From Octopus sinensis (Eukaryota), in NCBI RefSeq assembly GCF_006345805.1, contig NW_021833987.1:1-52124 (forward strand): a DNA stretch of 52,124 bases. The letters run 5' to 3'. Made by a program: the position numbers and the translations under genes. This document shows positions 5,826 through 32,846 of the stretch, piece by piece. Position 1 is the first letter of the stretch; each line of letters opens with the position of its first letter. The notes under the pieces are model-generated. The model saw only the letters and a list, made by a program, of their open reading frames with translations, was not told the origin of the DNA and ran no database searches.

Positions 5826-6226
5826 AGAGGTATTGATATCCAGGAGACCCAAGGTGGCAGGTATGTTTATGTAAGTGCTATAGAAGGACAGTAGTTAAAC
5901 TCTGGGTTCAATAATAATACGAGTGAGGAGTCTAATGCGGGTCTTGTATGAGCATGTATATGTTAAATAAAAAATAAGGGTAATAGAATTATCCATCAAA
6001 CATTAAGAGTATCTATCAAACCTCTTATTTCCCTTTATACTTCCTATTTCCTTCCTTTTCCAACATAACTCCTAATATTGAACTCTACTATTTCCCTCTA
6101 TTTAATCATCGTCTCTGATGAAGGGATATTCCTAATATCCCAAAACAGCTGTAAGACTAAATTTCTCTTTATAAACGTCCTGAAAATTCCACACGGCCTT
6201 AGCTTTGTTGTCTCATTTTATTTAAT
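5826..6226 (+). mobile_element. Non-coding Penelope-like/retrozyme-like insert carrying a hammerhead, inside a TA/CA microsatellite
   Basis: Unique AT-rich block flanked by (TA)n and (CA)n and containing the 6111-6157 hammerhead. The family assignment is inferred from the ribozyme type. Confidence 0.5.
6111..6157 (+). ncRNA. Minimal type I hammerhead ribozyme motif (G12-to-A mutated)
   Basis: GTCT-CTGATGA-A-GGGATATT(CCT)AATATCCC-AAAA-CAGCTG-TA-AGAC. Stems I and II pair and stem III is palindromic; GAAA has become AAAA at a CpG. Confidence 0.8.
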
Positions 6227-7029
6227 ACACACACACACACACACACACGTGTGTGTTGTGTGTGTGTGTATGTAAATATACATATATATATATATATGTA
6301 TGTATGTATGTATACATATATATATGTGTGTGTGTGTGTGTGTGTATATATATATATATATATATATATGCATGTAACAATTGATATATATAGAGATAGC
6401 TGGATTAATAAATATGGATATTTAAATATATTGATAAATATAGACATTGAGAAAGATAGATTAGTAGACAGAGATACATAGATAGGTAAAGATATTTATG
6501 AAGCGTAGTATAATTTATAATTGGCTTCGATATTCGTTTTTCTACCAATTTCTGAGAAACGCACGTCTTCTGCATGGTTCTCGAGTTTAACACTTTTCTA
6601 TAATAGTACTATTTTCAATGTTATGCACTCTTTCCATTATATATACCGATGTTTATAACGACATCAAATTTCGTTTGTATCTTGTGGTTATACCTTTCTT
6701 ATCCTCTGCCAGTGTGCGTGTAGGTTGGTGCGTGTAGGTGGGTTCGCGCGCGCGTATACACGTAATAATATTCTACTACAATTGACGTGCAACCGAACAC
6801 CGGCTTTTGAATTCGCTTATTTGTCACATTACTGGCAAATATATCCCCTGGGCAATCCATAATTATAACTGAAACTTGTAATGAAGTCCCAGTTCTTCTC
6901 ACGGAACAACACGAAAGTATCTTTACGAATTTAATTAACTGTTTTTACTGACTCAAACCAACACTTCAGTCTCCAATTCTTTTCACCTTCGTCTCTCGTC
7001 AATCGGCACATGAATTAGAAGATGCATCT

Positions 7030-8400
7030 GATATTTGATAGCTAACCTGGGGTTTTCACATGTACTCTAGTATCTACTAAACGCCATGCTGTTGTTGTTG
7101 TTGTTGCTTTTGCCGTCGTCGTTGCTGTCAGTGTTGTTGTATCCAAGACTTTCACGTCATATCTATATCATCTTCTTTCAAACATAGTGTAACAAGGGTA
7201 AGTTATGTTTGTAAAACAACGCTGATAGATAATCTTAGTCTCAACTGTTGAATAGACACTTCATGTTTGATAGACAATTCTGGTATTCGATAAATAATAG
7301 TAGTGTTAAATAATAACAATTGATAAATAACAGTTTTTGCTTGTTAACTCCTAGTGCTTGAGGAACAGTTCTGATGTTTGACAGATAATCCTAGTGTTTG
7401 ATAGCTAACCAGAGCTTTTAGCATGTACCCTAGTACCTATTAAATGCCATGTTGTTGTTGTATCCAAGGCTTTCTCGTCATATCTATGTCGTCTTCTCTC
7501 AGACATTGTGTATCTAGGACAAGTTCTGTTTGAAAAGACACGCCGATAGCTAATCTTAATCTTAAGAGATACCTCAACTGTTGGATAGACACCACGTGTT
7601 TGATAGATAATTCTGGTGTTTGATTAATAACAGTAGTGTTAAGTGATAACAATTGATAAATAACAGTTTTTGTCTGATAATTCCCAGTATTTGGTGGACA
7701 ACCCTAATGACTGACAGATAATCCTAGTGTTCGATAGATAATCTTAATATTTGATGAATAATCCTAATGTTCGATGGGAACTCTAAATATTTTATGGATA
7801 ATCTTATTATTTGGTGAATAATCATGATGTTTGACGCACAATCTTAATATTTGTTTGATGGATATGTAGTGACGCTAGGTTTTAGACGCCATTTTGTGAT
7901 ATCCATCTGCGCATGTGCAATGTTTGGTGTCTTCCTGTAGGCCTGCCGGAAGTTCCCTGATGCGCATGCGCAGTAATCAGGAGCAGTTAGCCCTTCCCGC
8001 TATTCCAAGCCTCTTGGCTCTTGGGCGGTCGATGAATTAAGACGTGTCCCGACAAGGCTCCGAGCGAAGGGGCGAACCAGACTCGGCGGCCGATGAAGAC
8101 TGTTCTAACCATGGTGGTTTAATCCGACTCTGCTGCTTTCCTAACCCTGGCGTTCACGCTACCGATGAACAGCGATGAAGTATCTCCTTCTGTGAAAATA
8201 ACAAACTATTATTGTTATTTGTTCAGCTATTCGTGTTCCTGCCGTTTTATTCCTTTCTATACATTGTATAGAAATGTGTGAGGCACCCTACAAGTGCAGA
8301 TATCACACAGAGATAGATAACAAAAATCCTACAAATTATCTTAAAATTTGATAGGTAATCTTAATGTTTGATAGATAATTCTAGAGTTTCATAAATAACC
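7030..8400. repeat. Degenerate 20-bp minisatellite (TGTTTGATAGATAATCYTAR) with a ~360-bp tandem duplication
   Basis: 20-bp periodicity at 7700-7860 and 8334-8400. The block starting about 7034 is repeated from about 7397. Confidence 0.75.
7865..8333. mobile_element. Possible solo LTR inserted in a 20-bp minisatellite
   Basis: GC/CpG-rich block with TGTAG...CTACA inverted ends (alternative end at 8292) that interrupts the minisatellite. No clear target-site duplication. Confidence 0.45.
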
Positions 8401-9771
8401 AAAATGATAGTCCTTCTCGTGTTTGACAGACCGTCAAACGGCAGCTTAAAGATACACAGAAAACTTAACGGGTTGACAGACAATCAGACAGACAGACAGA
8501 CTAAGGATTTGCGCTCTTGTCTTAGTATATTTCTCCCCCCACTATATCCATACACATTACATGAATATGAGGAGTAGAAAAACGAAAAGCTGGCGACAGG
8601 TGAAAATTGATGACGGGTGTCTTGGCTATTTATCATTACTCACCTGAAACTAATACCCGAGGGAAAATGGTTGTAATCAAATTCTTTGCCAAATTCACCA
8701 ATATACACTTAGTATCACTGTAACCTATAGGATTTATCGATTTACATCAGTATCATCAGTTCTGGCGCACAACGTCATCATCATCATTGTCATCGTCACC
8801 ACCACCACCACCACCACCACCACCACCGCCGCCGTCGTCGTCATAAACCTATGCTATTCTCATTGAAGCTAATCTCTAACACTGGCCAGTCCCAATATTC
8901 ATTCATTATGACCGTCATCAATAACGTTGTCATTTTCTTCATTATTAACAAGGGCCGCCAAGGGACCTTTAAATAGTGGTTCAATCTGCTAGAAGTAGCA
9001 GCCAAATGCTCTCAAATCATACCCAACTGGCTTAAAAAAAGGTGCGGATGGACATAAGGTTTTAAATGTATGTTTGTCTACTCAATGAGGATGGACCTGG
9101 GGCTAAACTAGCAACAGCATTGATATTGAAGCAACATAAACCACTTCACACACATTCAATACTACCTCACCATCAATATTCTTCACACCACCATCTAACG
9201 TACTACTACAACTATTTCTGCTGCTGCTGCTGCTGCTGCTGCTGCTACTACTACTACTACTACTACTACTACTACTACTACTACTACTATCACCATCATA
9301 ACCCCTATCTCACTGTTAATGCTGTCATCGTTATCAACTCTCATTATTGACACAACCTCCACCAAAACTACCACCACTGCCATTAATCCTCATCACCCCG
9401 AAAACCTACCCCCACCACCACAACTACAACCCCCACCAACACCACCTCATACAACCAATACAACTTTCAGTGCCAAAAAGGAGATTTATTTTCTGAACAA
9501 GTTTTCTATTTATAAGATTTCACACAATATTTTGGCCGCGTTACATCATCATGGCCGCCGACAGTATGGTAATAAACATAGTCATTAATATCATCATCAT
9601 TGTAATCATCATCACCACCACCATCATCATTATCACCTCCATCGCCACCACCTTCATCATCCTCGTTTTTTAAGGTGGTAGGGTGAGATTTGAGGGGAAG
9701 TTTGGCTGCCATTTTTTTTCGTAAGTCCGAATGATGGTTGCTTCGTTGGCTGAAATATTGGTTGAATATGG

Positions 9772-30992: not shown

Positions 30993-31073
30993 GGCTCTGA
31001 TGAAGCCATAAGGTGTTACTCAGGCACTCAACTATGAGTCCACTGCATCTTATAGCAGAAACAGCCGTAAGCT
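30993..31073 (+). ncRNA. Minimal type I hammerhead ribozyme motif with long stem II
   Basis: GGCT-CTGATGA-A-GCCATAAGGTG...CATCTTATAGC-A-GAAA-CAGCCG-TA-AGCT. Core intact; stem III is one change from a palindrome. Confidence 0.75.
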
Positions 31074-32801
31074 AATGAAGTACAGGACCTTTGAGTTATA
31101 GTTATAATCCTTCTAACAATCTTCTGTTCTCCTTCTGTTTACTAAATTTCATCCCCAAGGTGAGAATCAATCGGAATCTTTGGCAAAGACATCTGTTCAA
31201 GATGCCGCACAGAGAAACCGAGACTTGGACCTCATGAATACGAAACTATTCGCCTAAGACTATTTGTCTAAGACTTCGTCACGTATTTGTTTATAATTAC
31301 ATCCATCCATCTATAAAGAAAGCTGTGTATTAATTAGTTTGGAGTATGTATCTTTTACTAAAACAAAAGTCAACACTGTCAAATAAATTCGTATAAATTC
31401 TAATTTTAATATACTGTTTTTTTCTTTTTTATTAGAATATAGTTTTCAAGTTACTTTTATTATTGAAGATTTCAGCTTCACGACTCACTCACAAATCAAA
31501 TTTTTATTAACTGCAACATAGACATCTTACGTTGGACGATGGCTTTCTTAACGTGTCTGTTTATACTTCAGGAAATATAAATGTCCAACTATTTACAACA
31601 CTACTTTCTGCAGACATATCAATAAAAACATTTCTCCAAATTATAAGTTTAATTCAGTGTCAGCCAAATTATGGTGATTCCGGTATCCTTTCATATTTGT
31701 TGCGTGTTGTTGAAGAAATAGAAAGCGGAATTAGAGAAATGGTTCTAATTTTCTTACGTCATTTGTAGCAGATATAAACATTTATTTGTAAAAAATGTAT
31801 CTACTTGTCACGACGTGTAATCGAAATCTTTAGCACAAAGAAGCAAGTTCAAGAGCTACGATTTCAACATCCTTGACTATGAAAGGATATCGAAAACACA
31901 ATCGATATTTTTAACATAAATAATGTTATGAACATCAATAAATTTATGTATCAAAATAGAAACGAGGATATATACAAAACGTGGGATTGTCATGAGTTCC
32001 GTTAGTATGTGTCATTACATATAAAACGTATTTTAATTGAACGAACATACATTTCTGTACAAAGCTACAACTGATTTCATTGATTGAGTATCGTGCTTCG
32101 TGATGTCCAAACCTGTCGGAAATGTGATGGTGAGCTAACAAAGTGGTTACAGCTGAGCTTACACGTCAGGTTGTTGATTCGATTAGCTTGGAAGTTTTTA
32201 ATGTAATTCCCTCGGTATCTACCTCCTACAAATGCCTCAGGTAGACTAGAGCCTTTGTGAATTAAATTTCGTTCATGGAAGACTGTGTCGGAGAGACAGT
32301 CTGTATTTTTGGCGGGTGCGTTTTCTAATCCGTCGCCTAGTTATACATCACCATCTAATTCATAGGTACCTTTGGGAGGGCACACTCTGCTGTAAATATT
32401 CGGGTGATATTTTGATACATAAATTTATTGAGATTTCTGGTCTGAAGATAATTTCTATCCTTTCACCGGTTTCAGATACCTTGACAAGTGTTATAAGTGC
32501 TGCCTTTTCTCTTTGAGGTTCTTGCAAAAAGGATACTAAACTGCACATACTTATACACAGGTTATATACACATACATAGGAAGAAACCCCAATGTTGTTA
32601 CTTGATTTGCTAGAAATAGCACTCAAATTCCCTAAAGTCACACATTACTGCTTTTTAACTTAAAGATGGACATGGTTGGAAGCGTTTTTAAGGATAGTTT
32701 CGCTGATTCACAATCGACATAGATTTAAACATCAATATATGCAAAGATGGACCAACCTAGATTGGGCACTAGCTTACCTAGGACTGGTCAAATGATTTAG
32801 A

Positions 32802-32846
32802 CACGTCTGATGAAATCCCAATAAAGGTCGAAAATCGATTAAGAAT
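32802..32846 (+). ncRNA. Degenerate hammerhead-like motif
   Basis: CTGATGA-AATCCCAATAAAGGTC-GAAA-ATCGAT-TA. Core and palindromic stem III present; stems I and II pair poorly. Confidence 0.4.

Follow-up and report, generated by a model that had tools for sequence, protein, structure and literature searches.

Five hammerhead ribozyme motifs in an Octopus sinensis contig as probable decayed 3′ ends of Penelope-like and retrozyme-like elements, including a family with a U6 core

The contig NW_021833987.1 of Octopus sinensis (assembly GCF_006345805.1), which was analysed over its entire 52,124 nt and is referred to below as the window, belongs to a 2.72-Gb genome and is rich in TA/CA repeats (151 tandem-repeat rows; alternating tracts make up 12% of its length). 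It contains five hammerhead ribozyme motifs, named here by the start of the hammerhead as F1 (6111), F2 (25309, minus strand), F3 (25824), F4 (30993) and F5 (32802). Comparison with their genomic relatives makes it very probable that these motifs are decayed solo 3′ ends from five hammerhead-bearing repeat families. F1–F3 would be truncated Penelope-like elements (PLEs) with open reading frames (ORFs), two of the Hydra type and one of the Neptune type; F5 would be a 304-nt unit without an ORF that likely depends on mobilisation in trans; and the parent of F4 was not found. For all five, target-primed reverse transcription at TA/CA repeats is the likely mode of insertion. The initial annotation, made from the window alone, had regarded the motifs as the best candidate for an undescribed non-autonomous system. 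For the most part they are not one, as the class is already known: solo minimal hammerheads, (TA)n targeting and retrozymes without long terminal repeats (non-LTR retrozymes) have all been published, and hammerheads in microsatellite-flanked inserts are known PLE biology. Solo minimal hammerheads derived from truncated metazoan PLEs, with many families per genome, were described by Cervera and de la Pena (2014, PMC4209133), and the available part of that paper shares with our motifs the type I topology, the short stem I, the extra base after CUGANGA, the palindromic stem III and the mostly solitary occurrence.

All five motifs are present at their predicted positions (Table 1). Each is a member of its own dispersed genomic family, of which the window holds one copy. 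The surrounding blocks, at first described as unique, are therefore repeats: a first look at the genome gave 2621 candidates for F1, 184 for F2, 3581 for F3, 2411 for F4 and 392 for F5, and 40 of these were scored per family. The stem sequences differ among the families, while pairing in stem I, stem II and the palindromic stem III holds within each, which agrees with the proposal of five separate families of minimal type I hammerheads of the PLE or retrozyme kind, with a dimer-type stem III. Cores and stems are mostly kept across the family copies, and better so than in the window, where none of the five copies has a perfect hammerhead and every one carries a lesion or a core deviation. The families are multicopy with mostly conserved cores; the single-copy inserts or unconserved cores that had been named as evidence against real ribozyme families were not what we found. 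CUGANGA is intact in 44/59 F1 copies and 43/51 F5 copies, a perfect palindrome occurs in 49/59 (F1), 22/27 (F3) and 30/51 (F5), and stem II is complete in 37/59, 25/27 and 23/51, respectively. For F2 and F4, the alignments of family copies retain the CUGANGA, GAAA and UH core. The common layout attributed to the motifs is thus recognizable, but it is not perfect: F1 lacks G12, F3 reads CUGUAGA, and F2, F4 and F5 have stem mismatches. Likewise, an extra base precedes GAAA in the F1, F2 and F4 hammerheads, but the F5 family has no extra base after CUGANGA, contrary to the claim that all motifs possess one. In all families the 3′ end is fixed and the 5′ end varies among copies; the former lies ~60–110 nt beyond GAAA, or ~470–540 nt in F2. 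The hallmarks of PLEs, namely 5′ truncation, inverted copies and tail extension, were all found.

Table 1. Positions in the window of the hammerheads and of the repeat segments assigned to each family (L numbers designate loci)
Feature	Position	Strand	Remarks
F1 tail extension (3′), inverted, ending at (TA)n; PLE-type inversion	5803..5967	-	matches L209 2632-2472, 85%
F1, putative 3′ end of a Hydra-clade PLE, 5′-truncated, followed by (CA)n	6022..6225	+	family copies; long copies reach the endonuclease
F1 hammerhead, G12 lost, predicted inactive	6111..6157	+	reads AAAA against family GAAA
F2, putative 3′ end of a second Hydra-clade PLE, 5′-truncated	24855..25594	-	L052 enters the Hydra endonuclease; tips also in L032, L054
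F2 hammerhead, long stem II; cores intact, closing pair of stem I and base of stem II mismatched	25310..25393	-	
F2 frame of Hydra endonuclease, last codons (CxH motif)	25525..25593	-	translation matches end of the L052 frame
F2 tail extension (3′), inverted relative to the hammerhead part	25592..25674	+	matches L032/L035 tails, 83%
F3 flank duplication, left copy (target-duplication-like; end of F2 tail plus TA/TACA/CA)	25637..25747	+	
F3, putative 3′ end of a Neptune-type PLE, 5′-truncated, nested in the F2 tail	25748..25947	+	long copies L173/L231, L192 with GIY-YIG; L231 also with reverse transcriptase
F3 hammerhead, U6 core (CUGUNGA) family-wide; stems intact	25824..25859	+	window reads CUGUAGA
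F3 flank duplication, right copy	25952..26026	+	
F4 family fragment lacking the last ~40 nt of the family; parent element not found	30880..31084	+	
F4 hammerhead; cores intact, mismatches in both the palindrome and stem II	30993..31073	+	
F5, 3′ part of a retrozyme-like unit of 304 nt, head-to-tail and without ORF, then TA/CA tract	32782..32902	+	
F5 hammerhead, stems I and II broken, predicted inactive	32802..32846	+	

Neither the ORF listing of the window nor tblastn with PLE proteins against it gave a PLE reading frame or a real match. For F1, family copies elsewhere indicate the 5′-truncated end of a Hydra-clade PLE. What looks like the 5′ edge of the family, near −870, is a TG/TA tract inside the element, and upstream of it five loci (L205, L209, L210, L217 and L223) contain endonuclease remnants with CxxC and CxH motifs, together with a CxCX5C linker in the longer ones; additional F1 copies gave matches as well. 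The tail piece that is inverted in the window follows the hammerhead part collinearly in other family copies. F2 is, by the same kind of comparison, assigned to the 5′-truncated end of a Hydra-clade PLE distinct from F1. Its window copy retains the last codons of the endonuclease, so that the description of the inserts as non-coding does not apply to it. A search match upstream of F2 was rejected as the parent element, being an unrelated repeat. The CxCX5C linker, the CxxC and CxH endonuclease motifs, the hammerhead, the insertion at (TA)n and the inverted copy with a tail extension all resemble the Hydra-clade PLEs as presented in section 11 of Craig et al. (2021, PMC8557442). F1 differs in its long 3′ untranslated region with an internal microsatellite, and the comparison of F1 and F2 is one of endonucleases, the reverse transcriptase (RT) motifs (RWK, DKT) of that clade not having been recovered from truncated or heavily decayed copies.

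F3 resembles the Neptune clade. Among 30 position-sampled F3 loci, L173 and L192 continue upstream for ~1300 nt and there enter a GIY-YIG frame that has a cysteine linker. In the extended L231, Pfam detected RVT_1 (E 6.7e-8) and GIY-YIG (E 3.6e-4, just under the cut-off); this copy also has the DKG motif and a CxxCxxC-type linker, and its hammerhead lies ~900 nt downstream. The arrangement of an RT with DKG, a CX2-5CxxC linker and GIY-YIG at the C terminus, upstream of a 3′ hammerhead, with a (TA)n flank, is that of endonuclease-bearing Neptune PLEs, an assignment made by motifs alone. The proposed linkage to RT plus GIY-YIG ORFs was accordingly found in part: GIY-YIG sequences are collinear with F1–F3, RT was seen only for F3 (L231), and neither was found linked to F4 in the 30 loci covered. 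The genome also holds long-ORF Neptune-type elements of other families that end in (TA)n. These gave the top genomic GIY-YIG matches, which were rejected as F3 parents, the adjoining F3 copies being separate insertions in their (TA)n tails.

F5 looks like a non-autonomous retrozyme-like unit that was likely mobilised in trans. A head-to-tail period of 304 nt occurs in L301, L302, L320 and L327, no ORF was found in the unit, and many copies open with a stretch of their own 3′ end that precedes the unit start. An ORF-less head-to-tail unit of 170–400 nt with a type I hammerhead corresponds to the non-LTR retrozymes, which are described as PLE dependants in the available parts of PMC7229834 and bioRxiv 10.64898/2026.07.22.740005. 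F5 shares with them a size of ~300 nt and coexistence with PLEs, but differs from the retrozymes presented there by its minimal hammerhead with a long palindrome, its dispersed 1–3-mers and its fixed 3′ end at TA/CA. For F4, the search covered 30 loci with flanks of 1.5 kb, extended to ~6 kb for 15 of them, and no linked ORF was found; in L328, a Neptune ORF lies on the strand opposite F4. The family has a common 5′ edge ~280 nt upstream, after a TG/TA tract. Since the apparent edge of F1 is an internal microsatellite, that of F4 may be one too, and because the F4 hammerhead resembles that of F1, a Hydra-type parent is plausible. In 25 F4 copies (L082–L105), core positions 3–5, read by eye from the alignment, are CCG in 3, CCA in 7 and CTG or TTG in 15; CCG and CCA would be the pattern expected of a U4C source element decaying at CpG, and hence a second core variant. 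These counts leave out an automated tally of F4 cores, which contained false matches.

The alternative that all five families are non-autonomous and form an undescribed microsatellite-targeting system is improbable. Most copies are indeed short and ORF-less, F5 fits, F4 has its common 5′ edge and no linked ORF, and some F3 copies (L057, L064 and L067) occur in short head-to-tail units. However, the collinearity of F1, F2 and F3 with GIY-YIG coding sequence refutes it for these three families, so that the non-autonomous label may be kept for F5; the F1 edge is an internal microsatellite and the F4 edge may be one, and the class is published. The L057, L064 and L067 units represent an F3 subtype, to which the 5′ part of the window F3 also belongs; it is possibly a non-autonomous F3 derivative carrying the U6 core. 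That the motifs arose by chance in AT-rich sequence close to ubiquitous microsatellites can practically be dismissed: a strict hammerhead descriptor found 2 motifs in the window, where 40 local shuffles averaged 0.43 and 3 of them gave at least 2, and tracts are abundant, yet family copies have better cores and stems, and these lie at a constant distance from a fixed 3′ end, and Neptune relatives in other animals show the same motif after the ORF. With 3/40 shuffles reaching 2, the window alone is weak evidence, and it is the family evidence that makes the motifs real. A looser filter recovered F1–F4 together with one chance-like match and missed F5, and the best 150 of 329 Rfam rows for the window included no hammerhead and consisted of microsatellite-driven miRNA matches.

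The initial annotation had noted a microsatellite on at least one side of each insert. This is nearly uninformative in the window, because 57% of sampled positions have a tract no more than 300 nt away, but an abutment specific to the 3′ end is real and supports the suggested microsatellite preference. An alternating tract of at least 12 nt directly after the 3′ end was found in 40/55 F1 copies, 9/14 F1 tails, 8/9 F2 tails, 33/43 F3, 16/25 F4 and 14/30 F5 copies, compared with 3.1–3.5% of background positions. In the window copies of F1 and F2, the tail extension of the family is joined in inverted orientation; an inverted copy with a tail extension is drawn for PLEs in the Fig. 2 legend of PMC8557442, where (TA)n targeting, the inversion-plus-tail structure and a microsatellite bias are reported for the Hydra and Neptune clades. 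By analogy with established PLE biology, the GIY-YIG endonuclease would nick a (TA)n/(CA)n site, and reverse transcription would be primed at the target and start from the 3′ end of the RNA, with frequent early stops or inversion. As it would usually stop early, mostly the hammerhead-bearing end would be left. In source elements, the two hammerheads of a tandem transcript would pair via their palindromic stems III and cleave it into RNAs of unit length. Cofolding, a thermodynamic hint only, paired the palindromes of two molecules for the F1 and F2 window copies, F1 copy L003 and F5 copy L125. The window hammerheads themselves are probably inert, because they are lesioned and have no partner.

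Several observations weigh against this interpretation as PLE and retrozyme ends inserted at microsatellites. Pfam did not recognize the F1 endonuclease pieces, and RT was not recovered upstream of the F1 and F2 endonuclease remnants in the fetched copies, which were short or heavily decayed, so that the autonomy of F1 and F2 rests on the endonuclease alone. No F3 copy with an intact ORF was seen, L231 being frameshifted. Of the 30 F5 loci, L313 has the remains of a Neptune endonuclease upstream on the same strand, and another has one downstream; both are read as coincidence because the PLE density is high. One F2 3′-end anchor gave an abutment of 1/13, although it is probably short of the true end, and the element may itself generate part of the microsatellite instead of targeting it. 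In addition, cofolding gave no palindrome helix for F3 or for the window copies of F4 and F5.

The feature that sets F3 apart, and that the initial annotation missed, is its core, in which U6 replaces A6. A 25-nt F3 pattern that allowed A or T at position 6 had 15,065 exact matches in the genome and a reversed control had 0; the first 100 matches listed all have T at position 6, with all four bases at N7. When A, C or G was required at this position instead, 562 matches were obtained, and a hand count of the first 100 non-T matches listed gave 67 C, 24 A and 9 G. In a family of roughly 15,500 copies, U6 therefore accounts for ~96% and A6 for near 1%, and the non-U6 bases show the transition bias expected of post-insertion decay. 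Among copies found without core selection, U6 is present in 16 of 17 scorable ones and A6 in 1, a further copy being deleted there. A sister family in the same genome has A6 in 2 copies, L039 and L083, and related Neptune elements from other animals have the same small hammerhead after the ORF. Among 80 metagenome loci that encode related proteins, 9 contained hammerheads on the same strand, 10 in total, with A6 in 9, G6 in 1 and U6 in none; F3 differs from these relatives by its family-wide U6. With A6 in the sister family and relatives, U6 is most likely a derived state that the source elements retained over several waves. N7 tracks subfamilies defined by the downstream flank (the nearest neighbour has the same N7 in 23/30 cases, a value reached in 0/2000 shuffles), and U6 is present across four N7 subfamilies, one of which is recent, as it contains identical copies. 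H17 varies among U, A and C.

The U6 core of F3 is a probable new variant. PMC4209133, in its available part, gives the CUGANGA consensus and a U3–A8 variant, and U6 was not found there; text searches of the literature and supplements found no report of a PLE hammerhead with U6, a result that does not extend to figure-only data, bioRxiv supplements or Lunse et al. 2017 and leaves the novelty uncertain. The nearest natural parallel is the A6C hammerhead of phage Bcep176 (PMC3088659, PMC7151607), likewise substituted at core position 6, but with C and in one phage copy, whereas F3 has U in ~15,000 genomic retroelement copies. Natural A6C hammerheads are reported there to cleave slowly in Mg2+ and to prefer Mn2+, by analogy with which the F3 ribozyme is likely attenuated. 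Source elements would have kept U6 through several amplification waves, which suggests that the ribozyme is likely slow or dispensable for transposition. That it is still active and tuned, with slow cleavage or a shifted metal preference selected in source elements, has somewhat less than an even chance. The preservation of stems I and II, GAAA and the palindrome, the restriction of variation to N7 and H17, which hammerheads tolerate, and the match between N7 and subfamilies favor such tuning, as does the Mn2+ preference of A6C. Yet A6 changes strongly reduce activity in Mg2+, as reported for A6C in the same papers; the conservation could stem from a protein-binding or priming role, or from short time; and Naiad PLEs flourish without canonical hammerheads, according to the available text of PMC8557442. 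PLE hammerheads also cleave poorly in vitro (PMC4209133).

More broadly, and only tentatively, we suggest that a lineage of Neptune-type PLEs expanded to ~15,000 copies while carrying an A6-to-U hammerhead, which persisted in four or more subfamilies, one of them recent, with stems and other core bases preserved. The lineage would encode either a ribozyme that is slow or metal-tuned or an RNA structure that does not cut, and F5 would be a further case, a retrozyme with a minimal hammerhead that relies on the same TA targeting. What role PLE hammerheads play, still an open question, can be tested directly with the U6 family beside its A6 sister family; if the suggestion is correct, the two would be a natural pair, within one genome, on whether PLE hammerheads must cleave. 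The F3 hammerheads would escape every CUGANGA descriptor.

The window frames at 20172-20555 (+) and 47803-48234 (−) look similar to those ends of non-LTR elements that encode a zinc-knuckle/restriction-like endonuclease, although neither frame had a significant Pfam match. The flank duplication around the window F3 is unusually long, about 75–110 nt; no comparable target duplication occurs in the 30 position-sampled F3 loci, the single match being pure microsatellite. Among the other Neptune-type elements of the genome, one long-ORF family (L131, L137 and L156) seems, by eye, to end in a hammerhead with the already described U3–A8 core downstream of GIY-YIG. L165 and L167 show a two-ORF layout in which a 479-aa upstream frame overlaps a 781-aa RT–endonuclease frame, and the presence of several copies with a frame of the same 781-aa length suggests recent activity. 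Finally, the metagenome locus L362 contains a complete Neptune-type element with identical hammerheads 3066 nt apart on both sides of the ORF.

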